Assembly: GCA_013265495.1 (NCBI GenBank)
Contig: MU057654.1
Span: 173,203 to 237,202, forward strand
Source of the DNA: Vicugna vicugna
Taxonomy: Eukaryota
Direction: 5' to 3'
Length of the DNA stretch: 64,000 bases
Shown: in pieces, positions 1 to 49,684 of the stretch
Layout: each line of letters starts with the position of its first letter
How positions within the stretch are numbered: the stretch's first letter is position 1
Position numbers and translations under genes: made by a program
Notes under the pieces: generated by a model
The model's input: the letters and a program-made list of their open reading frames with translations, nothing else
Database searches by the model: none
What the model was told of the DNA's origin: nothing

Positions 1-612
1 ACTCCTGGGCTTGTATCCAGAAGGAAATCTACTTCAGGATGACCCCTGCACCCCAATGTTCATAGCAGCACTATTTACAATAGCCAAAACATGGAAACAG
101 CCTAAATGTCCATCAACAGGTGACTGGATAAAGAAGAAGTGGTATATTTATACAATGGAATACTCTTGAGCCATAAAAACCGACAACATAATGCCATTTG
201 CAGCAACATGGATGCTCCTGGAGAATGTCATTCTAAGTGAATTAAGCCAGAAAGAGAAAGAAAAATACCACATGAGATTGCTCATATGTGGAATCTAAGA
301 AAACAAACAAACAAACAAAGCGTAAATACAAAACAGAAATAGACTCATAGACATAGAACACAAACTTGTGGTTGCCAAGGGGGCGGGGGGTGGGAAGAGA
401 TAGACTAGGATTTCAAAATTGTAGAATAGATAAACAAGATTATACTGTATAGCACAGGGAAATATATACAAGATCTTATGGTAGCTCACAGAGAAAAAAA
501 TGTGATAATGAATATATATATGTTCATGTATGACTGAAAAATTGTGCTCTACACTTGAATTTGACACAACACTTTAAAATGATTATAAATCAATAAAAAA
601 TGTTAGAAAAAA
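1..612 (+). mobile_element. L1 3' end (ORF2 C-terminus, 3'UTR, A-tail), young lineage-specific family
   Basis: Typical L1 ORF2 end ([23 protein letters not shown]). AATAAA and A-rich tail at ~592-612. Nearly the reverse complement of 51991-52600. Confidence 0.9.
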
Positions 613-1786
613 ACCCAATATAATTAATTTCACAAAATTATATGTGGAATTAGACCTGGGAATTAAAAATTCTGTGGCTTCATTTTTTGTATTAGGAGAG
701 TTTGACAGGGAAAGTCTGCCTTCAAGAAGACCAAAGGAATAAATATGTCATGAATTCCTTCCATGGACACTTTTAAGACTATTGCTTGTGGGTAGGCATT
801 TTGTTTTTTTACTATCAACTATGATTTTATAGCAATGGGTATATAAATGAATAATTATACTGCCTCGCATTGTTTACGTTCGAGTTTGTAAAGTGTTTTC
901 ACATGTCACTTTCATTATCTTCAGTTGACAGATGAGCAAAGTTAAAGTTTCAAGTGATGTGCCCCAAATCACACAACTCCCTGCCTGCAGGTAGTTAATA
1001 TCTGCATGTCCATCATAGTGTGGGCTAGGCACTTTTACCTTTATTATCTCTTTGAATTCTTACATTAATTCTGAGAACCAAATAGAAAAAAAAGGGAAAG
1101 CGAATCTCAGAGTAGTTACATCCATTACTCAAGATCGTAGAGTTAGGGGCAGAGCTAGGAATTGAATCCCTATTTTTCTGATCACTGAAGCTGACCTGAA
1201 CCAGGTAGTTTGCTATTCCTGGGGAAGAGCTGGCTCAGAATGACCTCTAGGTACCAAGACCCTGGGTAGCCTCAGGGCCATCTTTTCGATTAAGCATAGT
1301 AGTCACAATGCCTAGGTCTCATGATACTTTCAGGGGTCCATGAAAATTTAGGGAAGTGATGTCACTCAAAATGGTAGAATAGCAAACTCCAGGGCCCTGT
1401 TCATCTACAAAGCAACTAAGCTGGCAAAACTGTCAGACTCAACTTTTACAGAACTCTGGAATCTAATCAAAATCTTACAACACATCAGGAGAAAGCTTAA
1501 TGAAGAAAGAAGCTGTGACATTTTAGTAAGAGAGAGCTATGGCATTTTAAATAACTCTCTTCCCACCCTCATCCCTCAGATCAGCAGCAGCCATGAAGAT
1601 TCCTGGTGCAGGTTGCTAAGTGCCAGAGGGAACAGTGCAGACCTTAATCTCAAAGAATAGTAATTGTGTGCTTTGACTAGTCTGGCCAGCTCTGTGAAAG
1701 ACTATATCAAGGGCTTCCCTTTGTTTTTTGACTTGGAGAGTTCTCAGGGCTAGCTTGACTTCCCAGGCAGCATTTATTGACAGCAT

Positions 1787-2790: not shown

Positions 2791-2940
2791 GTTCTTCTCT
2801 CCAACCTGGAAGAGTGAGGAATGACAGGATCAGGTTCATGATCAAGTAAACTTTATTGTAGCTCTGGTATCATTGGGGAAAATGTTTACAAGACTTTCTG
2901 AGCATATATGGACCCCTTTCTTGTCTCCACTTCCCCACAG

Positions 2941-5900
2941 TGCTCCCTATGCCATTCCACCCTCTCATCAGAGAGGCAATTTTCAGGAAGGAGACCAAGC
3001 TCATGTTAACATGGAGACAGAGCAGAAGCCTCCAGAGAGAAGAATGGAGAGAAGCAGGCGGGCTGAGACCATGGGAAGCTGGTTCAAGATCACAGTGAGT
3101 GTCCTGACTAAATGGACCTAATACGTAGAAGAAGGTGAACAGAGGGAGTTGTGTTGGAATCGGGTAGAGATGGTATGAACTTTTCTGGGGCAGAGGAGTT
3201 GGTTATGTGTCTTGTTATTATTAGAAGTTAACATCCTAGACCATCTAAGAGAAGATTCAGAGAAGCAATATGAAGGGAACAGACTGACTGCAGGGAGCAT
3301 GGGAGAGGTTGTCTAAAAGCAAAGGAGGAAACTACTGTCAAGATGGAGCAACTTCATACCACAAAGCTCAGTTTGGCTCAGGCTGAGTGTGGGAGGAGGC
3401 TGCGTCTCTGGGGTCCTTGTCAGAGGGGCAGGCCAGGTCTGCCTTAGGTAGGGTCTCTTGGAACTTTACAAAAAGAAGTACGTGTTAAGCATATTAAGTT
3501 GATTATTTCAAGAAAAGTGTTTGAGGGGAAGAAACGATATTTAGAAAATCCACATGTGGTACAATAACAAATATCGACCTAGCGTAAAAAATTATTTAAA
3601 GCTTGAAAAAAAAAAGTCTGAAAGGAAGACCTGGTTGGGTCTTATCTTAAACTTATATTCTATTGTATCAATTTCCTCTCCCATTTTTCTCTTTGCCCCC
3701 CAGATTCCATTTGGCATAAAATATGAGGAGAAGTGGCTGCTGAATTTGATTCAGAAGTACTGCAGTGTCCCCTTCACTCCAGTTGAAGTAAGAGAGGACG
3801 TCGAGGCCAATGAGAGGAAACGGGGTAGATGGATGGTCCAGATGAGAAATGACTCTGGTCTCATATTGTCTTTCTCTTGTCACTCCCATTGACCCCTGTG
3901 ATGCACCGTATTCTATGCAGAAGGAGCTGCAGTCAGAAAAGGTGGAGCAGATAAAGGTAATGCAGACTCAACACAAGTTCTGCCCCACAGCCAGATCCAC
4001 CTATTGCTCCCCAATCAACACCTCAGACTCAGAGCCACTGAACCCCGTCTTTAACTCTGCAGCTGACCATGAACAAACTGTTTGATGCCTCCCAGGCATT
4101 TCTTAACAGCCAGAGACTCTGCTTTGGATCTGGTATGGCTATAGCAGTAATCCCAGGGCAGGTGAGGGCAGAGGGGTCTGCCTGGGAAAGACCTTCGGGA
4201 TCGTAACTCTGGGAGGGGTTGGTGCAGGCAGGACCCTCTCAGCTTTCTGTTTCCCTCCTGTTGGCTTCCTGGAGGCTTGATGACCTGTAATGTTGAAATG
4301 CCACGGAATCCGAGATATCGCATGCCTGCCCCTCTGCAGATCCGTGGAGAGAACATGCCCAAGGTGAGGACTTAGGCCCAATGTTGGGACTGATGGTGAG
4401 GGTGGGACAGATTAGGCAGAAGAGGCAGATTGGCCTCAAACATCCCCTGTTGGGGTCCTCACTCTCTTTCTCCATCATAGATTTTGTCCTTGGATTTGAG
4501 CAACAAGAGACTCTGCCAGCTGGGTGGCCTGTCTGATGCTACACAGAATGCTTCTGACATCAAGAATTTGAACGTCTCCAGTAGTGAGGTGAGGTGTGGT
4601 ACCCAGATCCCTCTTTGAAGAGGAGATGGGAGGGCTCATGGGAAGGTGACAGAGGAAGCGAAGTGAATTTGTTGGAAAAGGAAGGGACGACTGGGGGTGC
4701 AGTACCATCCTGGCTCTCTTTCTCTGGTTCGTGTGGTTTCTCTACATAATTACAGGCAAAGTCTTCAGGGGAGTTGGGCAAGGGCCAGAGGCTGGAACAA
4801 GATGGAATGTGTGCAGATAAAAACCCTCTGTGCACCACCCTTCCTGATAAGTCAACCAACATAAGGTCAGATGTACCCTCTGTCACCTGAACTATTCCTG
4901 ACAGTGTCTGTTTGCAAAAAGCAGCAGTCTTGGTCCTCTCAGAGGGCCACAGGCCCTATGCTATCCTCTCTGTGTCACATAGGTGACAAAGGTTCATATG
5001 GCATCCAGGAGGCCCCCAGCCCAACATATGCATAGTTTCCATTCCCACCACAGGTCCCTGGGACGAGCCAGTTCCCCTTCTTCTCTCTTCTTCCCTGATC
5101 CACCTCCAAACCATTGGAGAGGTTCTTTCCCTTCCCTTCACTTTGCTTTCTCTCTCTCCCTTGTCTCTATGACCCTATGTCTCTGTCTTCTCTTCTTCAT
5201 CCTTCACTCATTTTCTGTCTTAATCCCCCTCCACTTTCTTACCTGCCTCACTCATGTCCTTTCTCCAGCATCCGGGGCTGTCCCTGGGGGGGGTGTCCTA
5301 GTCTTGGCAGAATGCTGGACCCCCAGTGAGGTAGCAGAGCCCCTGACTCCAAACCCATTCCCTTTAGTCTCCGAAACCTTCAGTGGGGACCTGCAGAAAG
5401 TAAGACGGGGAAAGAAGCCTTATTCATGGTTGCTTCTTGTGGCACCTGGAGAACAGAGTCAGGACAGTCTAGGTGGGAGGTACCCAGGAGGGAAGGAGTG
5501 GAAGGAGAGGGATGGAGGGAGGCAGGCAGGTAGGGAACACTCTTCTGGTGTATCAGTCCATGTGGAAGGTGCCCAGGGCCGGGGAGTGTAGGTGGACACA
5601 CTGGACTGTGTCTGGTGTAAGTGTACTTGCTCCCACGAGAAGAGACCGCTTTGTAGTTTCACTGACTTTTCATCTTGGCAGCTCCATCCTGGAATTGTTC
5701 CCCAAGTTATTACGCTTGGTAAGTGTATTCCTCAATCACTGACTCCTCTAACTGACACTGACACCGCCCACAAACTACTCTGAACCCTTTAGGTCTTGCC
5801 TGAGTTCGATTTTTGAATGTGGCCCTTAAACGTTCTGGGGGCAGAGGGAGGGTACAGCCTCTGTGGGAAGCTCACAACAGCTCTGGGTCTTCTTCGACCA

Positions 5901-7713
5901 CGTCTGCCACAGCCTTCAGGGACCTCGTGGTGATGACCCGAAGTGTAGTCCTGCCCTCAGATTTTCCAGGGCCCTTCCACAGTTGACCTCTGACCCTCAC
6001 CCTCCTGGGCCCGTCCTTTTCCTTGACCATCCAGAAGTGCCTCTTGGTCTGCACCACTGACTTCCTCTTCCCTCTCACAGGATGGCCAGGAGACACCCCC
6101 ACCAGCTAAGTTAGGTGTGGACACCCGTAAGAGCTTACCAGCCTGCAAGGTGAGCACGGAGAATCAAGCAGGGCTTTGGGAGGTGCGTGAGGAGAGGGTA
6201 TCAGCCCTGGTGCTGAGGACTGTTTTGATTCCAGGGAAGCTTCTTTGGATCTGATCAGCTGAAGAGTCTTATCTTGCAATTCCTGCAGCAGTGAGTACTG
6301 CTGGCAACCTGAGGAAGGGGAGGGCTGGGACAGCTGAGGCCACCCAAGCTCAGCTCTGCTCACGGGAGTTTCCAAGTCTCATTTGAGGTCCGGACCACAG
6401 AGACAGACTGTGCTCATGGCTCCCCGACAGGTATTACTTGATCCACGACTCTGGAGACCGACAGGATCTCCTGGGTGCTTATCACGACGAGGCCTGCTTC
6501 TCCCTGACCATTCCCTTCAACCCCGAGGACCCAGCCCCGTGAGTATCACAGCTCACACTCTGCTCCTGGGCCGTGTGGCTCCCCAGCAGACGCAGGGCAG
6601 CTCCTGCAAACCCCCACACTGGGGCCGCCCACCTCCCCCTGCTTCTCTTTTTCTCCCAGGAGCAGCTTGTGGGAGTACGTCAAGGACAGTAGGAATATGA
6701 AGAAGCTCAAGGACCCCTGTGAGTGTGTGATGAGGAGGCGGGGCGGGAAGGGGTCAGTCCTAGGGCCCAGGGCGTGGCAGCCCCTGACCTTCCCTCGCTT
6801 CTCCTCCCCCCACAGACCTGCGGGTCCAGCTGCTGAAACACACAAAACGTGACATTGTGCGCTCCCTCTGCCTGTTGCCCAAAACTCAGCATGACCTCAG
6901 CTCCTTCGTGGTGGACATGTGGCTCCACACGGTGAGCATCTGCTTCCATCTTGGGCAGGACCAGTTGCTGCAGGTGGGTAGGAGGTTTAGGTGGTGACTG
7001 AGCGCCTGGGCTCTTCCTTTTCAGGACACAATGCTCTGCTTCTCTGTCAACGGGGTGTTCAAGGAAGGTGAGTGTGTGTAGACCCCCCGTCCCCAGATGC
7101 CCCACTGCTCCGTCCCCCTGGCCGGGCTCCCTCTCAGCACCCTCCCAGCCACCCTGATCCCTCTCCTTCTCTTCCTGGCCCCTCTGTGTTCTCCAGCCCT
7201 CGGTCTTCCCACAAAGGACCCAGGTCTGACCTGCGTTCATGCCTGTCTGCCCCGCACACCCTGGGCGTTAGGGACACAGGCTGTGGAGTTTGATGGCTCT
7301 CATCCCAGAGCCTTCCTATGAGATCCGGGGACCATTACTTAACCTCTCAGTTTCCTCATTTGCAGAATGAGGTATTAGCATCCATGTCTTGGGCAGCAGT
7401 GACAAATGCATCAATGAACTGGTGAAGTGGTTGTCACGGGCCCGCGCACAGTAGAGGTCCTGCCACCGGCAGCAGGTTGCTCCTATAGCTGCCCTCCACA
7501 TTCCCGACACCCTGGCGCCCAGTGAGCACCTGTCCCCTCAGCATGAGTTTCCAGTCAGACTCTGTCTGCAGACCCCTGTGTGAGCGTGTAAAGCAGGTGG
7601 GGCTCTCGGGGGTACTGATGTTTGCTTTTTGTCGTTGAAGTGGAAGGAAGGTCTCAGGGTTTTGTTCGTGCCTTCACCCAGACCTTCATCGCTATCCCTG
7701 CCAGCCATTCCAG
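2941..7713 (+). pseudogene. NXF3: NXF3-like nuclear RNA export factor, truncated at both ends (probable pseudogene or partial duplicate)
   Basis: GT-AG exons at 2941-3094, 3704-3787, (remnant 3891-3956), 4063-4132, 4275-4363, 4481-4588, 4756-4865, 5682-5718, 6081-6149, 6235-6290, 6431-6538, 6660-6718, 6816-6931, 7025-7067 and 7641-7713. NXF3-type peptides: [68 protein letters not shown]. The first exons, the FHY exon and the terminal exon(s) were not found. Confidence 0.85.
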
Positions 7714-33287: not shown

Positions 33288-36200
33288 ATGTCTGAGAGAC
33301 AGCAGCAACAAAAATGTTTTCTTCCATCAAAGAAATATGGGACATGCAGAAATGAAGGTAAAAGAATTTCTATATTGCCATATTTTTAAAGATAATATGC
33401 TAATATGCAACTTGAATCTCAGAGAGAGGGGTAGTGTCTTACTCTGTTCAGGGTACTATGATAGAACACCACGAATTGGGTGGCTTAAAAACAATATAAA
33501 TTTATTTTTCACTGTTCTGGGAATGGAACATTTTCCCACAGACCATTTGAAGTACTAGTGTTTCTCAGGAAACATTTTGAGAAAGCCTGTTCAAACTAAA
33601 TCTCTTCTACCACATTAATACCTTGTACTTTTGTTTACTAAGGATAATGTAATGTATATTTACTAATGATTATAATCTATTCTTCTCATTAAAAAAACTA
33701 CTTATTGCTAACTCTGTCTTATTAGTCATTCTCTCTCTTGCTGAATCTTTCCACTTTTTCATTCTTTACATATAACCTCAATTTATGTTTCTGATATCAT
33801 GATGGCAAGAAATAAGCACATAAGTGCTAGTCATTAGGAAATCTTATATATAAAATAAAATGCCCTACTCTTTTTTTTAATGAATATTTGCCCTTCTCTT
33901 GAAAGGATGATAAAACTTACCCGTAATGATGAACAGATGAAATATCTCTCATTTTATACCAATTTTCCACACTTTAAACAGTTTGTTATTACTTAATAAT
34001 TGTATGTTCCATTTTTTTCAGTTCCTCTCATATGTTGAGCACTTTGATAACCTTGTCATATAAGTTATCTAATTTAATCTTCAGAAAAATCCTGAGAGGA
34101 TGTTAATTTACAGATAAGATACAAGAGTCAGGAGAGGCTTGATTATGCTATGGTAGTAGACAATCCACAAATCTCAATGGCATGTTCCTCATTCCCACTA
34201 CATGTTGATGGCAGGTGCATGTCCATCACAGGATGGTGGACATTTTAGGGTCTGAGCCATTCTTATTGGAATGACTTGGAGACCCAAACTAGCAGAGCAG
34301 CCACCAACTAGAAAGTTGTCTGTCACTGTGCCTGAGGGGGAGAGAGCCCTGGAGGGTCTCAAACCAACAACCGTATGTTCTGGCCCAGAAATAACACATG
34401 TTACTCACAACTCATTAACCAGAACTAGTCACATACACAGCCCTGCCCAAACAAAGGAGGTTAAGAAGTGCAGTCTGCCAAGTCCCCAGAACAGGGAGAA
34501 ATGGAAACTCGTGGCAAACAGCATTACTGACTACCACATAATGGAATTGAAACTCAGAAAGATTAAGTACTTGCCTAAAATCACATGGGCAGTAAGTGAC
34601 ATAACACATTCGAGATATATGATTTCACAGTCCATGCTGTTTCTACTCCTACTCCTTTCTACATTTTTGTATGCTACCCTCTTAAATGAAGTTCATGTAT
34701 ACTTATCATAGAAATTCCTTTACTTCATTGCTGCAATTCCATCTCCCTTAATCATCTGATACTCCAACAATGGGCTTGATTAAATCCCCAGCACTGGTAA
34801 GTCACAGGTCTTTTCCAAGTAATTAGATGTATTGGATATTTGGCTGTCCATGCTATTCAAGGATAACAATTATAAAAGAAAACCTGATGGTAGATGAAAA
34901 GACTGTTGATTTGTCATATACTTAATAAAAGTAATCTTGTGCCTTTCCATATTGTCAAGAAAAAAAATAAAAAAGAGCAAAAATTAATGAAATTGATAAC
35001 AGATACAAAAGAGTTGAATAAAAATGCTAGGTGTTGGTGCTTTCAAAATATAAAAAAAAATAAGGAAACCTTTGGCAAGATAGGTCAAGAAAATTAGAAG
35101 GCACAGATAAGCCACTTTTGAATGAAAAAGGTGTCATCCATGTACTTACAATAAAGATGTAAAAGATAATATTATGAAAAAGATATGCTGATAATTTGAA
35201 AATTTATATTAGGTGGGTAAATTCTAGAAAATTTTTATATTGAAGAAACAGAATATTAATATCAACAGTATTCTTGGCAAGGAATGCATGAGAAGGCAAA
35301 ATTACTGGTCAATCTTAATTGGTTATAAAAATGCAAAAAAATTAGAAATAAGATAATAGCAAATATAATCCAGCAATGGCTAAAACAATACAGCAAGGCA
35401 AAGTTGTGGTTATCTCAGACTGGCAATGTTGGCTTAACATTTGGAGATCCATAATGCTAAAGGAGCAAGAAAAGAATGATTATCACAAAGATTCCAGAAA
35501 AAAAGGTGTACAATAGAATTCAATAACCAATCAAGATTAAACACCAACAAAAATAACTCTCAGCTAACCAGGAATAGAAAGATATTTCCTTAAAACGATA
35601 ATTGGTATTTAAAAAAAACTACGACATATACCATACATAGTAGTGAGACATTAAAAGCATTCCATTTTAAATCAGAAGGGGCAAAGGTGATTCATGTAAT
35701 CACTTCTGTTCAACATTTTACTGAGTCTCCTAGAAATTGCAGTAAGCCACAATATATATACATTAATTAATACATGTATAAAAGTGAAAGGAAACAAAAC
35801 TGAGTATAATTGCCTTCACATAAAATTCAAGAGAATCTACAGAAAATTGTAATAATAGAGACTAACCAGTTTATTGGCTGTAAGACTAATATACACAAAA
35901 TAATTGCAACAAATAGAAAATAATATTTTCATTGTGAATATACCATTTACAATAGCAAAAAAAAATCCTATGGAATATACCACGAATTGGCTCACTTCGC
36001 AACTTTTCCAACACTCATAAACATTTTTGTATGTTTTCCTGTACTGTGGAGACTGGAAAGCTAAAAACAAGAATGCAGAGCTATGTTAGTGTTAGACCCC
36101 CTACTTGTGTCTAGAGTCCCAAACAGGATCTCTGTGTATTAAACATATGCATCATAGTGAAACTTGGAGGTAAAACTGAGTAATGTGAGAGCCACGTGCA

Positions 36201-39200
36201 GGACCAGCTACATATGGTGGGAGAGGTGTCTGGGTTTTATGGGCAGCTACCACAGAGTGCCTGGAATTCAGTCTCTGTCATACATATTGGTTAGCGTGTA
36301 GACAGCAATAGTATTTCAGCTGTAACAGTCCTGTAGCTTGAGTGGGCTTCTCCTGGCTTTGCAGCATCTAAGCATGCTTTTATGACCCTCACAGAGTTTT
36401 TGTAAGTGATATAATATGTTTTTATTAAGGATGCCTTATTTTAATGAAATAGCTAGAATAAATAGCTAACAGAGGCAAGTGGGGACTGTGATTAATAGAG
36501 TACTTGACAGAAAATTTGGCTGCAAGCCAGAGGCCCTGAAGGAAGTGGGGATCTGGGAAAAGTTATCTGGCCAAGGTGGATCTGAAGATAGCAAGGATCC
36601 AGCTGATATGAGGGCATGAAGTTTTGGTGTTCCATGGCACGCAACGGTGAAACAGTTGCAAGAGTCACCACCTGCGGTCATTTGAGTGGAAATGCCTTTG
36701 AAGTCAATGTAAGTCGGTGGACCAAGCAGCTGCTGTAGGGACTCAGAGGACACTCCCTTCCCCACAGCTTTGAGAAACATATTAGTGAGGAGGGCATCTT
36801 CATCTTGAAGTGTTCTGAGGTGGCTACTTGTGTGGGCCACAGATGAGATGGGAGATCCTGTCATTGACATGGTCACCCTCATTTCAGTGGGGATGTGGGG
36901 ATTCTGGAGTTGCAGGCGCAGTAGGAGCACTTAAGCTCCTGTGTTAACCTGAATGCTGTTTACCTTAATAAGGAGCAAGTACAAAAGGGTTTGCACGTTG
37001 GTTTGATCTATACCAACCTTTGAAGGTGGCTAGTTGATCAACAGATCCTCTGGATCTTGAAATATCTGAACATCCTTTAAGGTTGCATTTGATCAGCATA
37101 AAAATGAATAATAGATAAATAAGTATTTATTCATAGTAAAATATAAGAACATAAAATATAAATAAGTAAATCTCTAGATCTGGTGACTTGAGCTATCTTG
37201 ATGGCAACTGGTAATCCCTTACTCAGTTCCCACACTTGACCCAGAACACCTTTAATGAATGGACTACTGGGGAAGGACTGTACAATGAAGTCACAAGTAA
37301 CTACAGTAAATCTTCCTAGACTTAGCCAAAGGGACCATCAGACATTTACCACAGTTACTGTACATTTGTTTTAAGGACACTTTCCTAAGCCAGAGCTCGA
37401 TAAACTTCTGAAAAGGGCCAGATCACAAATATTTGAGGTTTTGTGGGCCATTAGGTCCCTGTTGTAACTATTCAACTCTGCTTTGTAGAGTGAAAGCCTT
37501 CATGGACACAGTATGGCTGTGGTCCAATAAAACTTTGTGTATAAACACTGACGTGGATTTCAAATAATCTTCACATGTCGAGAAATATTATTTTTCAACC
37601 ATTCAAATATGTAAAAACCATTCTTAGCTTGCAAACTGTAGAAAAATAGGCCACAAGCCAGGTTTAGCCCATGTGCTGTAGTTTGCCAATCTCTGATTTA
37701 AGCTAATGAAATCACTGAGTCCCTAAAACAGCAGAGTGGAAAGCCAGCAAAATGAGGTAGTATCCATTCCTAGGATCTCTGGCAAGCATAAACCAAAAGC
37801 TGATACTTTAATGAAGTGACTTTCAACCCTGGTTGCACACTGCAGTCACGTGGAGAATTTAGAAAATGTTGTTGCCTGGGTCTCACCCCAATTCCACTTT
37901 AATTGTTGTGAATGTAGCCTGGTGCTAGTGATATTCTCAATCTCCACAAGTGACTCTACTGTATAAACAAGGTTGAGAACTACAATGCATACAGTGAGAT
38001 ATTACTCAGCAATAAATTAGGCAAGAACATAAATGGCTCTCCAAAATATTACACTGACTTAAAAAAGCCAGACACAGTGGGGAGGGTATAGCTCAGTGGT
38101 AGAAGCACATGATTAGCATGCACGAGGTCCTGGATTCAATCCCCAGTACCTCCACACAAAAAAAGTGTTTCATATAATTTTTTAAAATAGCCAGACACAA
38201 AGGTGTACAGTATGTATGATTCCATTTATAAGAAACTCCTAGCAGGCAAAATGAATATACAGAGACTGAACACAGGTCAAGGTTTACATGGATCTGGGAA
38301 ATGAAAAGATTAAGAGGGAATCATTTGGAGTATGGTATATGCTTTATATCTTGATCAAGGTGGGAGTTAGCTCTAAATCTTGATGTTTACATATATGTAA
38401 TTTAAGATCAGAAGTTGGGTGAATCACTCAACGTGATTAGTTTAATAATCAGAGAGAGAAGACAGGTGGATCTGATTACCAGTAATTGTTTCTATTATGC
38501 TGTGTAATGAGTCATGGGAATAGTGCTTCCTCCCAAGCACCTGGAAAAACCCTCACCCAGCCTTTTATACAGCTAAAGCATGAACATGAAATTATATATA
38601 GTCTGTATTCCAGCTACTTATTTATGAACACAGTTGGTATTTTCCCGTGTTCCTTTACCTTGACTTCTTTGTATTTACATACCAAAACATAAACTTTCCT
38701 TAATATTTCCTTTTAAGTAATCATACTATAATATGCAGTTTTAAAAATTATGGTGAAAAACAAATAACATAAAATTCACTATCATAACCAATTTTAAATG
38801 TACAGTTTAGTATTGTTAAGTATATTCACATTGTTGTAAAACCAATCTTCAGAACTTTTCCATCCTGCAATTCTGAAACTCTATACATTAAATAGCAATT
38901 CCCCTTTGCTCCTTCCTCCCAGGCCCTGGTAAGCACATTCTACTGTCCATTTCTATAAATTTGCCTACTTTAGATACCTCTTATAAGTAGAATCATACAG
39001 TATTTGTCATCTCATGACTGGCTTATTTCATTTAGTATAATGTTCTCAAGGTTTATCCTTGCTGTAGCATATGACAGAATTTCCTTCCTTTAAAAAGCTA
39101 AATAATATTCTACTGCTTGTATGTACCATAATTTGTTCATCCATTTATCCATCGATGGACATTTTAATTGCTTCTACATCTTGGCTGTTGTGAATAGTGC

Positions 39201-42200
39201 TGCTATGTACATGGATGTGCAAATATATCTTAGAGACTCTACTTTAAATTTTTTTGGAAATATACCCAGCAGTTATAGTTATGATGGTGAATAAGAGATA
39301 AAGAGAGGCATTGCATAATGATAAAAGGATCAGTCCACGACACAGACATAACGATCCTAAATTTGATGCACCAAACAACAGAGCCTCAAAGTACACAAAG
39401 CAAAAACCGATGGAGCTGAAAGGAGAAGTAGCCGGGTCCATGATTATATTTGGGGCCTTCAACACCCACTCTCCTCTTAGCAAGTGATCCAATTGCTAGA
39501 GAGAAAAATCAGCAAGGATATAGGAGATCTGAAAAACACAATAAACTGACAGAATCTACATGGTATAAATAGAACAATCCACCCAACAACAGCAGAGTAC
39601 AGTTGTTCCCCCTGAGGGTCTATGTAACATTCACCAAGTTAAACCATCTTCTGGACCGTCAACCTCAGTAAGTTCCAAAAGAATTGAAATCATACAGAGT
39701 ATGTTCCCTGGCCATGATGGAGTCAAATTAGAAGTCAGTAATAGAGAGAAAAAAGAAGAATCCCTAAACACTTGGAAATGGTACTTGACACATCATTCCA
39801 GGTTGTCGTTCAGACACTTGTTATAGAAGAACTGAGGTTAGGAAGAGTTGCCTCCTGAGCTGAAAGACGTTTCAGGCTGGTCCAAAAGAGAGTTCATTCT
39901 GGGCATTTCAAACAGTGTACTGCTGAGGGCAAGGCTGGAGAGAGGGAGACAGTTTAGGAGGCTATTACATCAGTCCTGCCTGACACTAATGCTTTTACTG
40001 CACTGTCAAAGGAAGGACAGCTTGCTGGTTGTTAGTGGAATCAGTCTGGTGACTGAATGGACTTGGGAAGCATGAGAGAGGTTGCTTCCCAAGTACTGGT
40101 GTGATTATTAGAAAGTCCTGAGAGGAGGCAAGATTCAGGTGCCTTCCTGGTGTATGACTGGTGTCCAGTCTAACCTGTGAATGCATATGCCTCTGTTCTT
40201 CATAAATCCTGCTCCATTGTTTTAAAGGGTTCAACACGGTTTTCCTCTTTCCTCTTCTCCTAATTCTTTCTCCTCCTCCTCCTGCTGCTCCCCCTTGATT
40301 CCTCCCCTGATAGTGCCTTCTATCTGCACAGGCAGAGAGTTTCCTTTCTGGGATTTGTGGGATTGGATCCTTAAGGTAGGTTGTGTGTGATTGGTCCCTT
40401 AGGGCAGGTTGGCACTTTGTTTTCCCTACCATCATGTTAGCCTAAGATGTGGTACATGGTAAGTGAACCACTGATGTGTCTTCAAATTTGTATTTTTGTT
40501 CCCCTTTCAGAATACAGTTATGGTAGTAGCTCATGTCAAGGAAGAAATGAAGGTTGGGGTTCTTTCCGAGGTAATTTTGGCAGGAGGAGCCCTCGTTATG
40601 AACGTGGTGGATGTGAGCCTCAGCCTTCACACCTCCAGGAGGAGGATGGAAACATGGTGATGGGGGATGTCCAGGAGGACCCCCAAGTGAGACAGTAAGT
40701 GACCAGGCAGCAGAGTTTGCATGCAGCAGCCCCTAGGACTGTGCAACCCTTTCACTCTCCATGCTCTTCTTTCTCTTCTCTCACTGGAAAACGGAAGTGT
40801 GCTAGAAGTGGAATAGAGGTTAAGTAATCCTAATCATAGTCCTGGTGTCAGAGAAGCAAGGCTGTACGGAAGACTTTCTTAGCATTTATGGCCACTCACC
40901 CTCCTTCTCTCCACATTCCCCTGCAGCACTCCGTATACCACCTACTGGAACAAGAGGAGAGTGAGATGTCATAGTGAAGGCTGCATCCGTGTTACTGTGT
41001 GGAGAGATAGAAAACCTCTGCAGAGAGAAATGAGAGAGAACGCACAAGATGGAACCCCAGGGAGCTGGTTCAAGATCACAGTGAGTGTCCTGAAAAATTT
41101 ATGGAATGTTTAGGAGAGAAAAGTCAGGGAGAATTGTGTTGGTCTCATGTAGAGACACTAGTTTATTTTCTGGGGACAGTTTATAATCTGTACTATATTG
41201 CTAAGAGTTATCAATCTTGTTCATCTAAGGGCAAATTCAAAGAAACAGTATAAAGAGAACACACTGACTATAAGGAGAACAGATTAGACTGTCTCAAGGC
41301 AAAGATGGAAACTACTGCCAAGGATATGGAGCAACTCCACACTGGAGGTCTCAGCTTGGCAAGCTGAGTGTGGGAGATGGGGTGTCGAGTCTCTGTAGAC
41401 CTTGTGTGAGGGACAGGCAGTGTCTGCACTAGGTAGGATCTCCTGGTACTTTAAGAAAGATCATCTCTAACACCTTGATAATTTCGAGGAGAGCTTTGTA
41501 TGGAGAGAAAGAGTGTTTAGTAAATCCATATTAGGCACAAACATAAGAAATCATGCCAGTGGTCCCTTCTTTAAAAGTCCTTTCAAGCTCAGTAGAAGGT
41601 CGGAAAAGAACATTGTGTTGGGTCTGTTCTCCAGTCTTAATTCTATGTTGTCTCGCTTCTTTCCCATCCCTGCTTTTCATCCTTAGATTCCTTATGGGAT
41701 AAATTATGACAAGATGTGGCTAATGAACTCAATCCAGAACCAATGCAGTGTCCCTTTCACTCCAGTGGATGTAAGAGAGGATGGTGAAGCCAGATGAGTG
41801 GGCAGAGGGAAGAGGGGGGATGGGGAGCCCACTGACGGGAAAGGCTTTGTCCTCTGAACTTATTGTTACCTCCCCATCCTGCAGTTCCACTATGTGAAAA
41901 ACCGGGCTCGGTTCTTTGTCCAGGGTGCTAGCACTGCCTCTGCATTGAAGGATGTCAGCTACAAGATTTGTGATGAGGAGAATGAAAAGGTGTGTGTCAG
42001 GGGCATTACCTGTACCTTATCCCAGGACAGGACAGTCCAGGGGCTGGTCCTCTTCTTTGGAACTAGAGTTCCTGGTACTAACCTTACCTCTTCTTCCTGC
42101 AGGTGGCTATCTTTGTCAGTCCCTCTACTGTTCCCTACTCTGTGCTGAATAAGTTGGAGCCAAAAGAAATGGAGCAGCTAAAGGTAGTGTAGACTCAAGG

Positions 42201-45200
42201 CATGCGGTGTGCCAACACTCAGACCCACCTCTTCTTCCTCCAGCCCCCAGTTCCCCTCGCCCCCAAATTTCCTGTCACCATCGCAGCTTCAGAGTGGCTC
42301 TCTCCATCTCTCTCTGCAGCTGACTTTGAACAAACGATATAATGTCTCCCAGCAAGCCCTTGACCTCCAGAATCTCCGCTTTGACCCAGGTATGGCTGAC
42401 AGCAGTAATTCTAGGACAGGGGAGGGCAGAGGGGTCTTCCTGGAGGGAGACTTAGGGAGGGTAACGTGTGTGGTGTGGGTGCTGGTTAGTGCTGGCCCCA
42501 GACCCCACTCAGCCTTCTGATTCACTTCCCTCGGCTTCCTGAAGACTTGGTGAGCCATGATATTGATATAATTCTGAATCGAAGAAACTGCATGGCTGCC
42601 ACCCTGCAGATCATCGAAAAGGATTTCCCTGAGGTGAGGCTGTAGGCCTAGTGCTGGTATTATGGTAAGGGGTGGAAGACATGGGGCGGAGGGCAGGTTG
42701 GTCTCCCAGGCCCTAGATAGTAACTGTCACTCTAACTTTTCTCCCCCCAAAGCTGTTGTCCTTGAACTTGAGCAGCAACAAACTGTACCGTCTGGATGGC
42801 CTGTCTGACATTATACAGATGGCCCCCACAGTCAAGATTCTGAACCTCTGCAAAAATGAGGTGAGAGGAGGGAGCCAGATCAAAGTTGGGTTGAGAGCTG
42901 GGGAGTCGTGGTCATCACAGTGATGACAGGAGGCTGGCGAAGGTACCTGTCAGGGAGGGTGGGGGTGGAGGTGCAGGATCTGGAAGTGTCTCTTTCCCTG
43001 GGATTCGTTTTCCAATTTCCTCCCCATATTTCTCAGCTGAAGTCAGCCTGGGAGTTGAGCAAGATGAAAGGGCTGGATCTCGAAGAGCTGTGGTTGCAAG
43101 GAAACCCACTGTGTGGCACCTTCCCAGACCACTCCACCTACGTAAGGTTGGTGATAACCACTGGCACCTTTCCGGGGACCTTTGCCCCCTTGGGAGCCTG
43201 AACTGCCCCTGAGAGCGCATGTGTGCAGGAAGGGACAACCCAGGTACTCGAGAAGGAGCACAGACCCCACCTTCTGCTCTCTCTGTGTCCCTCACATTTG
43301 AGGAGTGTCCTTCCTCTGACCTGCTCACCTCTTCAGGTGCTCTGGGGTCTGTTTCCAAACGCTGCACCCAGCATTCTCTACCAAGTCCTCCCAAGAGCGT
43401 GCTCCACAAAGTGGGACTCCCCCCGTCACCAGAACGGGGAGCCAGATGCTGATTCCCTGGCCTGAGAAGGGTCCTCCAGCTCAGGGTCTCAGGCTGAGAC
43501 AGGCTTTCCAACTCTATGCTGATATGGGGCTCCCCTCCCCCATTCTGAGAGAAGTCCTCTTTCCCTTCCTCCAAGACGGTCCTCCCTCCAACCCCAGGTT
43601 GACAAGGGGGCTTTCCTGCCACATACTCAGGGTAAAGCCCTGGTGGTTCCTGACATGACATCCGTTCCTCTGGCCCAACACCAGGAGCTGGGCCCTTCTT
43701 GTGGAAGAAGCAGGGTTCCTTGAGTCAAGGGGCCAGAAGTTTGTCACAGACAGTGAGCAGAGGGCTTCCCAAGGGGGAGTGGAAGGCAGAGGGCAGAGGA
43801 AGTAGAGGAGACAGAAAGAGAGGCCTCTCGGGGACACTTGCCCCTCCATCCCAACACACATCACATCATCTTGCCTGGTCCTTCAGAGGAGCCCTGGGCA
43901 GCCTGAGACAGATATGATTCCTCAGGTAAAGAACCAAGCAAGACAGGTGCAGGGACCATTGGGAGAGATGCTCGTGAGAGGGAGGCATAGACCCTCACTC
44001 AGCCCCACACTGAGCTGGGAGCTGACCCTTTACTCTTCTGGGGAAGGTCTGCCCCTGTGGCTGCTGTTTCCAACGCCCAGCTCAGACTGAGCTCACACAG
44101 GTGACAGAGACTCAACCAGCATCCAGCAGGCCCCCAGCCCAACATGTTGCATGGTTACCATCCCTACCATGGGTGCCTAGAAGAGGAAGGAAGCCCTGCA
44201 GGATGGATTTGAAATGCTGCTTTTGGGGTACTGGAGAAGAGAGTCAGCGTAGTCTAGGTGAGAGGTAACCCGGAGGTAGGGAAAGGAAGGGAGGATAGGA
44301 AGCAATACTAAAGTGAAGGTGTTGAGAGAGATGAGGAGACTGCCTTTCAGAGATTCAGATGACAGGTGCTTAGTGCTCAGCAGGGAGGTGGACCCAAAAC
44401 TCTTAAAATCAGAGGCTGAGGTGGGCAAAGGGGGCTGCTGGATGGGCCAGAACACACTGATGTCTGTTTATGGTGTCAGTGTTTTAACTCAAAAGAAGCG
44501 CTGCAACCTTGAACTATCAACCACCTGTCTCTGTATTTGGTTTTGGACAGTGCCATCAGAGAATGTTTCCCTAAGCTGTTACGCCTGGTAAGTGCTTATA
44601 TTCATCACTGTCTCTTACTAACTTGGTGACTTCTGCAGATGCCCTCAAGCTCTTTGGGTCTTGCCTAGATTACATGTTTGCATCAGACCCTTGTCCATTT
44701 TAGGGGACATGGATGCCTGAAAAAGACATGGATATACTCCCTGGAAAAACATCCATAAACACACACACACACACAACTAAAGTTGCATGTAACAGTAGAC
44801 ACTTCTAGGACCTCATGATGAAGACGCCCACTGTATATTGCCCATAGAATTTCCAGGGCTCTTTTGCACCTGACCTCTGACCCTCACCCTCCTGGGCCTG
44901 TCCTTTTCTGGGATCATCCAGGGCTGCCTCCCTAGTCCCCAATGCTGACTTCCTTTTCTTTTCCCCAGGATGGCAAGGAGTTACCCCCACCAATTATCAT
45001 TGACATTGACACTCCCTATGCAGTAAAGCCCTGCAAGGTGAGGAAGAAGAATCAAATAACATTTGCAGTGTTGCAAGGCAGGCTTTATCAGCCACATATC
45101 CTCGAATGCCTTTTGATTCCAGGAAAACTATAATGGATCTGAGATGCTGAAGAATCTGATCCTGACATTCCTGCAGCAGTAAGTACCCCTGGGACTATGA

Positions 45201-48200
45201 GAAACAGGGAATTCTGAGATGGCCCAGGCCACCCAAGAACCGTCCCTCACAGGGACTTCCAAGACTCACTTGGGTCGAGATCACACAGACAGCCTGTTTT
45301 CCTTGTTCCTTCTCAGGTATTACATGATCTACGACTCTGGAGACCGACATGGTCTCCTCAGTGCTTACCATCACAGGGCCTACTTCTCCCTGACCATTCC
45401 CTTCAACCCCGAGGACCCAGCTCCGTGAGTATCACAGCTCACACTCTGCTCCTGGGCCGTGTGGCTCCCCAGCAGACGCAGGGCAGCTCCTGTAAACCCC
45501 CACACTGGGGCCGGCCCACCTCCTCCTGCTTCTCTTTTTCTCCCAGGAGCAGCTTGCGGGAGTACTTCAAGGACAGCAGGAATATGAAGAAGCTCAAGGA
45601 CCCCTGTGAGTGTGTGATGGGGAGATGGAGCGGGAAAAGGGGCAGGAAGGGGTCAGTCCTAGAGCCCAGGGCATGGCAGCCCCTGACCTTCCCTCGCTTG
45701 TCCTCCCCCCACAGACCTGCGGGTCCAGCTGCTGAAACACACAAAACGTGACATTGTGCGCTCCCTCTGCCTGTTGCCCAAAACTCAGCATGACCTCAGC
45801 TCCTTCGTGGTGGACATGTGGCTCCACACGGTGAGCATCTGCTTCCATCTTGGGCAGGACCAGTTGCTGCAGGTGGGTAGGAGGTTTAGGTGGTGACTGA
45901 GCGCCTGGGCTCTTCCTTTTCAGGACACAATGCTCTGCTTCTCTGTCAACGGGGTGTTCAAGGAAGGTGAGTGTGTGTAGACCCCCCGTCCCCAGATGCC
46001 CCACTGCTCCGTCCCCCTGGCCGGGCTCCCTCTCAGCACCCTCCCAGCCACCCCGATCCCTCCCCTTCTCTTCCCGGCCCCTCTGTGTTCTCCAGCCCTC
46101 GCTCTTCCCACAAAGGACCCAGGTCTGACCTGCGTTCATGCCTGTCTGCCCCGCACACCCTGGGCGTTAGGGACACAGGCTGATCATCCCAGACCTATGA
46201 GATCCGGGGACCATTACTTAACCTCTCAGTTTCCTCATTTGCAGAATGAGGTATTAGCATCCATGTTTTGGGCAGCAGTGACAAATGCATCAATGAACTG
46301 GTGAAGTGGTTGTCACGGGCCCACGCACAGTAGAGGTCCTGTCCCTGGGATCAGATTGCTCCTATAGCTGCCCTCCACATTCCCAACACCCTGGCCCCCA
46401 GTGAGCACCTGTCCCCTCAGCATGAGTTTCCAGTCAGACTCTGTCTGCAGACCCCTGTATGAGCATGTAAAGCAGGTGGGGCTCTCGGGGGTACTAATGT
46501 TTGCTTTTTGTCATTGAAGTGGAAGGAAGGTCTCAGGGTTCTGTTCGTGCCTTCACCCGGACCTTCATCTCTATCCCTGCCAGCTATTCCAGGTGAGTGC
46601 CGTATCATGGGTGGGAACCCCTGTCCCAGCCTGGGCTCAGGGGTGTGGGAATGTGGTGGTGCCCACCTTAGGTTTTCTCAATACTGTGGAAAGCCAGCAG
46701 GTAGATCCAAGGAGCAGTCTAGCCTAGTGGTTAAGAAGGGCATGGGCTCTGGAACTGGAATGTGGCTTCTCTCCTTGGTCCCAGCACTCATTGGCTGTGT
46801 GACCTTGGTCAAGTCACGTGGCCTCTGTGCGACTCAGTGTCTTCCTATGACAGCGGGGATCAGACTGTCTACTCCTTGGGCTGTTGTAAAGGGTAAATGT
46901 GAAATCTTCCCTGGCTTCAAGATGAACCTATAAATCTAATGAAGCTGGTAGACACTTCCCAGAGGTGGGCTTTGTGGGGATATAGGAATCCAAAGATCCT
47001 CGGGGACAGACACAGGAAGGTTATGGGATGAATCTGGTGGCTGAGTGGCTTGTTGTTGAGGGTGTGGTGGGTGGTCCATCCGTCCAGTTGTCTGAGGGCT
47101 TATTTTTCTTTCAGTCTTTTCATTGTGAATGACGAGCTGTTTGTGAGGGACACCAGCCTTAATAAGACCCTGAGCACTTTCTCCATCTCAGTTCCCACAC
47201 CCTCTGCTAGTTCCATGCCCACGCTATCCCAGGAGCAGCAGCAAATGGTACAAGATTTCTCCACCCAGTCTGAGATGAACCTCCAGTGGTCTCAGAAGTG
47301 AGTATGGGGTGTGCATGGCGATAAGAGGAAGCTGGGAGACTGAGGGAGTGAATAATATGAACACACAGGCAATTTGAAAAAATAAGTATTTGGATATTTT
47401 ACTTCCAGAAAAAAGTAAGCTCATGAAAAATGTATCTTAATTTTATGATAATATATGCAAAGAATTTTAAAACAGTATCATGCTCAGATGACATAATCTT
47501 TTATATGAAAAATCCTAAGATATCCACTAAGAAACTATCTGAATAGATAAACAAGTTCAGCAAAGTTTCAGGCTACAAAATTGATACACAAAAATCATTT
47601 ATATTTCTATGCACTTACAGTGAATTATCCTACATCAGAATTAAGAAAAAATTTGATTTATAATAGCATCAGATGAATAAATACTTAGGAAGAAATGTAA
47701 CTAAAGAAGTGAAAAATTTATACTTTGAAATCTTCAAAACAGTGAATAAATTAAAAAAAACCTTAAAAAATGGAAGGACATTCTATGTTCATGGATAGGA
47801 AGGCTTAATATTGTTAAGATGGTAATAATATTCAGAGTGCGCTACACAGTCAACACCATATCTATTAAAACCCCAGCTGACTCCTTTCCAAAAATTGATG
47901 AGGTGATTCTAAAATTCACATGGAAATGCAGTGGACTCAGAATAGTCAGAACGATATTGAAAGGGAAGAGTAAAGTTGAGGATTCACAAGTCCTGATCCC
48001 CACAATTTCAAAACCTACTACAAAGGTACTGTAATCAAGACTACATGGCACTGACATTTGGATAGGCCAATGCAATAGAAGTGAGAGTCCAGAAATAAAC
48101 CCTGACATTTGTAGCCAATTGATTTTCAATGAGGTGCCAGAAAAAATAATGGAGGAAAAAATAATCTTTTTAACAAATGGTGCTGGGACTCTTGGGTATT

Positions 48201-49684
48201 CACGTGCAAAAAAATGAATTTTGACCCCATCACACACCATATACAAATATTGACACAAAATGGATCAAAGACCTGTAAGCTCTACAAAGTAGAATCTCTT
48301 AGAAGAAAACATAGGTGTTTATCTTCATGACCTTGAATTAAGCAATGGTTTCTTATAATGACACCAAAACACAAGCAACCAAAGAAACAAATAAATTGCA
48401 CTTCATCAAAAATAAAAGCTTTGTGCATCAAAGGATACTATCAAGAAAGTGAAAATACAACCCACAAAATGGGAGAAAATGTTTTCAAATCTCATATCTG
48501 TTAAGGTCTACTATCTGGAATACTGAAGGATTTTACAGCTCAACAGTCAAAAGATAAATACCCAATTGAAAAGTGGGGAAAGGATTTAAAAGACATTTCT
48601 CTAAAGATGATAAACAAATGACCAAAAAGCACACGAAAAAAGGCTCAACATCATTACCTATTAGGGAAATAAAAATTAAAACAGCTGTGAGATACCATTT
48701 CACACATACTAAGATGGCTTTAATCAATGAAATGAAAGATAAGCGTAGGTGAATATGTGGAGAAATTAGAACTCTCATATATTATAGGTATGAAGGTTCA
48801 GTGGAGCATTCACTTTGGAAAAAAATTTGGCAGTTCCTCAAAATATTATACATGGTGTTACCATATGACCAAGTAATCTCACTCCTAAGTATATACCAAG
48901 AGAAATAAAACGTATGTTCACTCTAAAACTTGTACAGGAATGTTCATAGCAGCATTATTCATAATAGCCAAGAAGTGGGAACAACCCAAATGTCCTTTAG
49001 CTGATGAATGGATAAATAAATCTAGTACATACATACAGTAGACTTATTCAGCCATTAAAAAATACAGTTCTGATATATGTCATGACATGGATGAACCTTG
49101 AAAACACTAAGTGAAAGAAGCCAGCCACAAAAGGTCGTGATGGTAAATAGTATTGTTTCTTAATTACCCTTTCTGCTATTTGAACATCTTTCTTGATCAG
49201 TATATATTCAGTTTCCTTGTTCTTTGGCACAGCTCTACTTTTCTGTTTTGAATTCTAGTGGGAATGAATGCTAGTGGTAGGTATTTTGGTTTTCACTGGG
49301 TCTTTCTTCGTCATTACACATAGTGCTCTTACTGGTACATGTGTCCCAGCAAGACAGTGGCATAGATTTAGCGGTGGAATTGCACGGTCAGCATGTCCGT
49401 ACTGTGGAACCAATGGAGATCACCTGTTCTTCTCCCACTGCAGGTGCCTTCAGGACAATGACTGGAACTACACCAGAGCTGGTCAGGTCTTCACTAAGTT
49501 CAAGGTGAGGTCTGGGAATCAGGTGGGTTAAAGATGAACATTTCTGAGCCTTCAGGAAAGCCAAGAAGGTGGAGGCCAGTGTCCTGGGGGTGAAACTCTG
49601 GGAACTGGCTCTTCTAATATCCTGACTCCTTCTCTCCAGGCCGAGGGCAAGATCCCAGAGGAGGCCTTCAAACAAATCCCCTAA
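33288..49684 (+). CDS. NXF2: Nuclear RNA export factor 2-like (RRM, LRR, NTF2-like, UBA/TAP-C domains), 634 aa, spliced
   Basis: Coding exons: 33288-33357, 40511-40694, 40927-41080, 41687-41770, 41885-41989, 42103-42183, 42320-42389, 42545-42633, 42753-42860, 43037-43146, 44551-44587, 44969-45037, 45123-45178, 45317-45424, 45547-45605, 45715-45830, 45924-45966, 46520-46592, 47115-47297, 49444-49504, 49640-49684. Total 1905 nt, all GT-AG, phases consistent, no internal stop. Peptides [48 protein letters not shown] and [13 protein letters not shown] match recalled NXF2. The first coding exon is less certain than the rest. Confidence 0.9.
34960..35990 (+). mobile_element. Highly decayed L1 ORF2 fragment (intronic)
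   Basis: A-rich, with motifs aagcattccattttaaatcagaa and ataccatttacaatagc. Confidence 0.55.
36440..37360. mobile_element. ERVL/MaLR internal-like fragment (intronic)
   Basis: actcagttcccacacttgacccag...ccaaagggacc resembles ERVL gag/pro remnants. Confidence 0.4.
38079..38183 (+). mobile_element. tRNA-Ala-derived SINE (camelid Vic-1-like)
   Basis: ggggagggtatagctcagtggtaga...ttagcatgcacgaggtcctggattcaatccccagtacctcca plus A-tail. TSD agccagacaca on both sides. Confidence 0.85.
38740..39780. mobile_element. L1 fragments (antisense 3' end 38740-39270; sense ORF2 endonuclease piece 39280-39780)
   Basis: L1 3'UTR motifs on the minus strand. HCIMIKGSV...[13 protein letters not shown] endonuclease segment on the plus strand. 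Confidence 0.7.
47480..49140 (+). mobile_element. Old L1 ORF2 3' half inside an NXF2 intron
   Basis: [22 protein letters not shown] sequence at ~47770 and further ORF2-end motifs. Confidence 0.8.

Follow-up and report, generated by a model that had tools for sequence, protein, structure and literature searches.

Retention of intron 10 of NXF1 (TAP), which depends on a constitutive transport element (CTE), reportedly gives a short Nxf1 protein, as Li et al. are said to have described in 2006. The Mason-Pfizer monkey virus (MPMV) type of CTE is a long hairpin with two loops that is functional and binds NXF1. In Drosophila, sbr (nxf1) has a retained intron between equivalent exons of conserved size, and in human NXF5 and NXF3 the C-terminal export domains are missing. 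Here, we analysed a window of 64,000 nucleotides of the Vicugna vicugna genome (contig MU057654.1, positions 173,203 to 237,202), taken in its whole length, and examined a 110-nt exon, a 1.4-kb intron and a 37-nt exon in an NXF2-like gene of this window (gene B). We found that this cassette is probably an orthologous relic of the NXF1 intron-10 module, kept by descent and no longer part of a working circuit.

The short Nxf1 protein (sNxf1) has 356 aa with 18 new C-terminal residues, is found in polysomes and acts as a cofactor or regulator for Nxf1, and NXF5 is expressed in brain and testis, according to one report (Li et al., 2016, PMC5170612). In another, a 94-nt conserved region of NXF1 intron 10 was aligned in 36 mammals, the inner loop of the CTE and its surroundings were unchanged across most of them with less pronounced conservation in three, BLAST searches gave no CTE in sequences other than the NXF family, homology to the CTE was not reported for Drosophila, and the capture of the viral CTE from a host gene was discussed (Wang et al., 2015, PMC4338338). 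In the literature that we searched, no paper describes retention of the cassette intron in NXF2 or a short NXF2, in agreement with the initial annotation of this stretch, which was aware of no description of such a form; the accessible parts of PMC12234887, PMC5737842 and PMC3621094 likewise make no mention of NXF2 retention.

The cassette of gene B and its homology to NXF1 intron 10

Using the camel NXF2 protein as a tblastn query, we found two NXF-like genes in the window, both on the plus strand, and the cassette lies in the second of them, gene B. The exon map was derived from the tblastn matches, with splice sites judged by eye and then checked with a script. The frame of gene B is open, with no internal stop and a single terminal stop, and all 20 introns have GT-AG ends. 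The predicted product is 96.4% identical across 563 aa to P0007, which carries the NCBI name 'nuclear RNA export factor 2-like [Camelus bactrianus]'. Read across from the precomputed Pfam families of P0007 (PF24048, PF09162, PF02136, PF22602 and PF03943), gene B is predicted to encode the Tap RNA-binding, LRR, NTF2-like and TAP-C/UBA domains. The gene had been proposed to be NXF2-like, and an intact frame of 21 exons and 634 aa with this similarity to camel NXF2 bears that out.

The exon and intron coordinates, sizes and donor in the initial annotation were likewise confirmed, with canonical splice sites. Residues 1-39 of exon 10 match solved LRR chains of human NXF1 (e.g. 3rw6_A, E 3.7e-10). 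When the ten exons from the ATG at 33288, with AG/GT sites throughout, are joined to the read-through of the cassette donor, the model encodes exactly 369 aa, so that the 369-aa protein with RRM and LRR alone that had been predicted holds as the predicted product of this ten-exon read-through model. The peptide added by reading through, an R followed by 17 residues and a TGA stop, was also reproduced by translation.

To compare the cassette with NXF1, we searched the window's own genome (2.03 Gb). The NXF1 gene of this genome, on contig C9287, has a 110-nt and a 37-nt exon around an intron of 1876 nt. By blastn, the intron of gene B is 60.5% identical to this intron 10 over 973 columns (E 2.9e-46), and the match is collinear and covers the first ~960 nt. 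The alignment spans the intron's entire 5' two thirds, so the homology with the intron of NXF1 is real; the equivalence of the cassette to NXF1 intron 10 that had been proposed therefore stands on both the exon sizes and the blastn match. Identity between gene B and NXF1 is 0.79 in the 110-nt exon and 0.70 in the 37-nt exon, and falls within the intron to 0.47 at 43202-43500 and 0.60 at 43501-43800. It is 0.74 (40/54) at 43897-43950, the core of the CTE, which stands out within the intron. In a profile of 55-nt windows along the alignable intron, mean identity was 0.525 (n=178, sd 0.126).

The degenerate CTE homologue and the read-through tail

To assess the CTE homologue of gene B, we assigned the fold of the NXF1 CTE from the viral element, from Wang et al. 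(2015, PMC4338338) and from covariation in the own genome, and built a covariance model (R1) on 29 distinct CTE-like copies of this genome, chosen by similarity to the NXF1 CTE (alignment A2). In A2, 98.2% of the positions assigned to helices were paired, a value reached by none of 500 shuffles, while slid controls gave 26-46%. In three pairs of the apical helix both partners have changed. Helix 3, which has 4 bp and adjoins the inner loop, is paired in 29/29 copies, and the bulge reads AAGA in nearly all of them. Scored with R1, the NXF1 CTE reached 78.7 bits and the homologue in gene B reached 26.0 bits, as did an identical copy on contig C7429; the homologues in two further NXF2-like paralogues, L008 (G000:C5769) and L007 (G000:C4853), reached 23.6 and 18.6 bits.

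In the gene B homologue, the inner loop retains both its strands (UGAGAC and AAGACA), and the apical helix and the two lower ones are also kept. Helix 3, in contrast to that of NXF1, is broken in 3/4 pairs (GGGU:ACCU has become AGAU/AAGC), and the AAGA bulge has become AUGA. A four-way alignment showed that L007 and L008 share both losses; L007 has both loop strands mutated as well, and L008 keeps both. As judged from its sequence, gene B thus appears to lack a CTE in which the inner loop, the flanking helices and the AAGA bulge are all intact. Two other approaches gave null results. An Rfam scan of 42000-46000 returned only a chance-level match to HOTTIP_1 (E 0.51), in a collection that may or may not include a CTE family, and single-sequence folding found neither the NXF1 CTE nor the relic to exceed shuffles in stability (z -0.39 and +0.43), a method that did not recover even the known fold.

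The tail that is added by reading through the donor was compared with NXF1 in the same way. NXF1 of the own genome reads through to R followed by SVVASVSPPGDLHPLGG and a stop, likewise 17 residues and then TGA, which agrees with the earlier claim that tail length and stop equal those of NXF1. The human NXF1 tail, which we take to be as given in the initial annotation, is one residue apart from SVVASVSPPGDLHPLGG. A run of 17 open codons is by itself not beyond chance, since (61/64)^17 is ~0.44. Between gene B and NXF1 the tail shares 37/55 nt (0.67) and 6/17 residues, and 29 of the 178 intron windows of 55 nt match or exceed this similarity, so the tail does not stand out. An NXF1-like tail is expected by descent, because the intron beyond its start is also homologous.

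To see whether frame and stop position are kept among relatives, we collected read-through open reading frames (ORFs) and gene models from three protein searches and one cluster look-up and classified them by regular expression; a protein word search at near lengths gave one match. The resulting set held 44 NXF2-like and 13 NXF1-like entries, counts that include some spliced look-alike models and in which an end may be the end of a contig. A tail of 17 residues occurred in 13/44 NXF2-like entries, 8 of these 13 being one pig-like cluster; the remaining NXF2-like tails have 0, 2 (dolphin, orca and others), 13, 15, 16, 20, 21, 28 or more residues. The NXF1-type tails resembled one another far more closely (SVVASVSPPGD[LI]HPLGG and similar forms), with 17 residues in 6/13 entries. 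The initial annotation had named a stop position and frame that are not conserved among NXF2 relatives, along with a lack of intron-retaining reads in cytoplasmic RNA, as what would speak against its proposal, and for the first of these the survey went against it: both the stop position and the tail sequence vary.

A metagenome scan for host-derived contigs gave 92 pattern matches, one of which was confirmed (L006, with ~100 nt of intron). This copy reads R-SV, stop, TPCHPSW, stop, PSPMGA, stop; with two premature stops and the old stop still in frame, it indicates that frame and stop can persist without an open tail. The equal length of the tail and its shared stop thus appear to be residual homology in a stretch with few indels, and provide no evidence for selection on the peptide. 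A pig model (P0003) in which the tail is joined to the next-but-one exon was considered as a sign of an alternative donor and rejected, as the window has no GT at that place.

Features of the cassette, its host gene and related loci (positions are those of the window unless another locus is named)
Feature	Position	Strand	Description
NXF2-like gene B	33288..49684	+	21 coding exons; coding sequence 1905 nt; 634 aa; ATG 33288, TAA 49682-49684
Exon 10	43037..43146	+	110 nt; AG upstream; phase-2 end (..TAC GTA AG); donor aag/gttggt; last LRR stretch
Cassette intron	43147..44550	+	1404 nt; homologous to NXF1 intron 10
Read-through tail	43147..43201	+	third base of R codon, 17 codons, stop TGA 43199-43201
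Degenerate NXF1 CTE homologue	43886..43957	+	covariance model R1: 26.0 bits, E 1e-4
Second conserved intron block	43987..44135	+	downstream of CTE relic; identity to NXF1 0.69-0.79
Exon 11	44551..44587	+	37 nt; preceded by AG, followed by gtaagt; 26/37 nt identical to NXF1 37-nt exon
Second NXF2-like gene (gene A)	3011-7711 and beyond	+	cassette intron about 810 nt, 4870-5679
Provirus-like stretch	L009 (G000:C8189:13915300-13921400), about 2897-4705	-	integrase, envelope, NXF1-like piece

Relic, short NXF2 or regulated retention

Taken together, these comparisons place gene B close to NXF1 in anatomy and apart from it in its element. Both genes have exons of 110 and 37 nt around a homologous intron of 1.4-1.9 kb, both read through to R and 17 residues before a TGA, and both have a pyrimidine at position +3 of the donor; gene B differs in that its CTE is degenerate, with helix 3 broken, AAGA changed and 26 vs 78.7 bits, and in that only 6/17 tail residues are shared. 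The inference of the initial annotation, that a germline NXF paralogue may keep an autoregulatory intron-retention circuit, is thus upheld for the skeleton of the module (cassette, homologous intron and read-through) and fails at its CTE homologue. Compared with the CTE of MPMV and simian type D retroviruses, the element in gene B is a relic of the same descent in which the loop strands A..GAC and AAGACA can be recognised, and it differs in having one loop region without the flanking helix. NXF5 and NXF3 of human resemble the predicted short form as NXF proteins without C-terminal export domains that are expressed in brain or testis; those, however, are short by gene structure, whereas the full-length frame of gene B is intact and only unspliced RNA would give a short form. 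The retained intron of Drosophila sbr lies at the homologous place, with the difference that sbr is nxf1 itself and gene B is a paralogue.

If the cassette is a relic, as we think probable, the NXF1 intron-10 module would have come down to the X-type NXF genes at their origin from an NXF1-like ancestor. The intron of gene B would normally be spliced out to give the full-length export factor of 634 aa; where it is left in, the ribosome would stop 18 codons into the intron. With the loss of a defining helix and bulge from the CTE, the element through which the unspliced mRNA of NXF1 is exported, intron-containing transcripts should stay in the nucleus or be degraded, and the 369-aa 'short NXF2' would consequently be at most a minor by-product. 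Several observations weigh against such a reading. The CTE region (0.74) and the second intron block (up to 0.79) are conserved at the level of exons, with ~0.47-0.60 in the rest of the intron, a contrast that speaks for constraint, either past or present. In the relic's lower helix 5/6 pairs are kept, and two have changed on both sides relative to NXF1 (GGCUG:CAGUC to CCCUG:CAGGG). The cassette donor has a +3 pyrimidine like that of NXF1. In addition, the best alignment of the tail to NXF1 seems to need two indels, -1 and +1, separated by 17 nt, that is, a compensated frameshift, which would explain why gene B has PGTFAPLG where NXF1 and a pig-like NXF2 ORF have PGDL.PLG; this pair of indels comes from re-aligning the sequences by reasoning, and the MAFFT alignment is ungapped over these 55 columns. 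Furthermore, exactly 17 residues are kept in five distinct NXF2-type tails, namely those of the window, a pig-like form (LVRT[TI]VTLPGDLLPLGA), a bat-like form (LVITTLILSQRDLSFTF), Pteropus alecto (SVQNLFTLSGYLCTLGA) and Saguinus oedipus (SVATPVARPGLLCSLHD). Two deposited NXF2-named models, ELK03449.1 (271 aa) and KAK2083614.1 (307 aa), end in a 17-residue tail.

The same observations would suit a working circuit, in which the intron is kept, exported by a remodelled element and translated into a 369-aa RRM and LRR protein that acts as a cofactor or regulator. The export element would then be the CTE relic with its conserved surroundings, read perhaps by NXF2 or NXF1, and sNxf1 offers a proven precedent (PMC5170612). 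Gene B has the full skeleton for it, with the cassette, a suboptimal donor, the 18-codon read-through and an intron in which a scan of 43147-44550 found neither AATAAA nor ATTAAA as a poly(A) signal; both inner-loop strands are retained in gene B and L008, and the raised conservation, the compensatory lower helix, the compensated frameshift reasoned for the tail, the 17-residue tails of five lineages and the two deposited models all fit. We nevertheless consider such a circuit unlikely, since the 3/3 NXF2-like copies that still hold the element have neither an intact helix 3 nor the AAGA bulge, L007 has mutated loops, gene A has no detectable CTE homologue, and the tail is poorly conserved in sequence and variable in length among relatives. 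A wider form of the idea is that, in several orders of mammals, genes of the NXF2 type continue to produce a short RRM and LRR NXF2 from the retained intron, through an element in which the loop strands are kept, the neighbouring helix is replaced and a conserved GAGCUGGGC/GCCCAGCUC pairing closes the structure. We regard this as quite improbable; were it true, the short NXF2 would be the germline paralogue's own autoregulatory or cofactor isoform, parallel to sNxf1. A working module of either kind would mean that an export factor of testis and brain has its own short cofactor isoform and that the CTE mechanism extends beyond NXF1.

Retention might also matter without any protein being made, if a detained or regulated intron tunes NXF2 dosage through nuclear detention or nonsense-mediated decay (NMD) and the read-through ORF is irrelevant. 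Among the 20 donors of gene B, a pyrimidine at +3 occurs solely in that of the cassette intron (GTTGGT); at 1404 nt, this intron is longer than each of the 16 others located between exon 2 and exon 19 (85-606 nt), and its conserved blocks are located away from the tail. Furthermore, the stop lies 55 nt into the intron and upstream of ten exon junctions, so that by established NMD rules the RNA would be marked for decay. On the other hand, the donor has 6/9 consensus matches and by this simple count is no weaker than the other donors of gene B, and an identity gradient from ~0.6 to 1.0 between paralogues is as compatible with gene conversion as with constraint; we therefore hold this explanation to be rather doubtful. 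Under the preferred reading of the cassette as a relic, the locus is mainly useful as a natural decay series of the NXF1 module, in which exon sizes, donor type, frame and stop would persist and the helix and bulge beside the CTE loop would go first. Which parts persist and which are lost would sharpen what defines a functional CTE.

Paralogues, intron blocks and putatively captured CTE copies

The NXF2-like paralogues of this genome form a cluster on G000:C7429 (L005), G000:C4853 (L007), G000:C7647 and G000:C5769 (L008). Between gene B and the copy on C7429, exon 10 and the initial 822 nt of the intron show 100% identity. Compared with L007, gene B has an identity that increases through the cassette intron from about 0.6 to 1.0, which suggests a boundary of gene conversion or duplication inside the intron. 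Gene A, the other NXF2-like gene of the window, has N-terminal exons with ~43% aa identity to NXF2 and C-terminal exons that are near identical to it. Its cassette reads through to R+SDVPSVT and a stop. In the cassette intron of gene A, model R1 found nothing at E <= 10, and the sole homologous stretch recovered in it matches intron positions 947-1032.

The second conserved block of the gene B intron stands out at about 44022-44110, where identity to NXF1 is up to 0.79 vs an intron mean of about 0.5. Against the paralogues L007 and L008 its identity is 0.89-1.00, a near identity for which gene conversion may be responsible, given the steady rise of identity along the intron. A motif at 43685-43693, GAGCTGGGC, is complementary to GCCCAGCTC at 44075-44083 within this block, and the two flank the CTE relic. 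Numbered from the first base of the NXF1 intron, they lie there at about 579-587 and 1060-1068. Both motifs are kept in NXF1, gene B and L007, and L008 has the 5' motif with one mismatch. By their complementarity, the two could form a long-range helix that closes a CTE-containing domain.

CTE-like copies are also found far from the NXF genes of the window. BLAST of the genome with the NXF1 CTE gave >70 CTE-like copies, and an exact pattern for the CTE core gave 144 matches in the genome vs 0 for a reversed control; none of the matches listed (100 of the 144) lies on the window's contig. Three loci, L009, L010 and L011, carry a piece of ~440-530 nt that is 96-98% identical to NXF1 intron 10 and includes the whole CTE. 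In L009, ORFs for an integrase core with its C-terminal DNA-binding domain (L009:3860-4705; integrase E 1e-26 and 3e-22) and for a GP41-type envelope piece (L009:3324-3959; E 2e-13) lie directly 5' of the NXF1-like piece and in the same orientation. L010 has an integrase C-terminal domain and shares its flanks with L009. Since the NXF1-like piece is collinear with the introns of NXF2-like genes, it would be ancestral in NXF1, and the provirus-like element seems to have taken it from the host. L009, L010 and L011 look as though an endogenous retrovirus had recently captured the host CTE. This may matter more than the cassette itself: with a 98% copy of the host NXF1 CTE in a provirus-like element, the genome seems to offer a living case of the capture from host to virus that has long been proposed for retroviral CTEs.

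The dispersed copies of the CTE core belong to two or more subfamilies, in which the apical helix has undergone compensatory changes, and subfamily 1 shares a repeat of about 450 nt. Some copies form tandem arrays with a period of 99 nt, with 18 units in L012 (G000:C7773:6110650-6112413); a further example of the CTE core lies at G000:C2064:1543291-1545133. No retroviral ORFs were found beside the CTE-like copies that were checked for them; Pfam assigned 0 families to two ORFs of L013 beside older CTE-like copies, and tblastn with the provirus ORFs gave no match in L012, L013 or L034-L036. In the NXF1 intron 10 of the own genome, a tandem duplication of ~70 nt lies just downstream of the CTE (L003, about 536-673, minus strand). 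The duplicated stretch is single-copy in gene B and probably also in the provirus-like copies, where two BLAST pieces overlap, so that the duplication appears to be younger than the capture.

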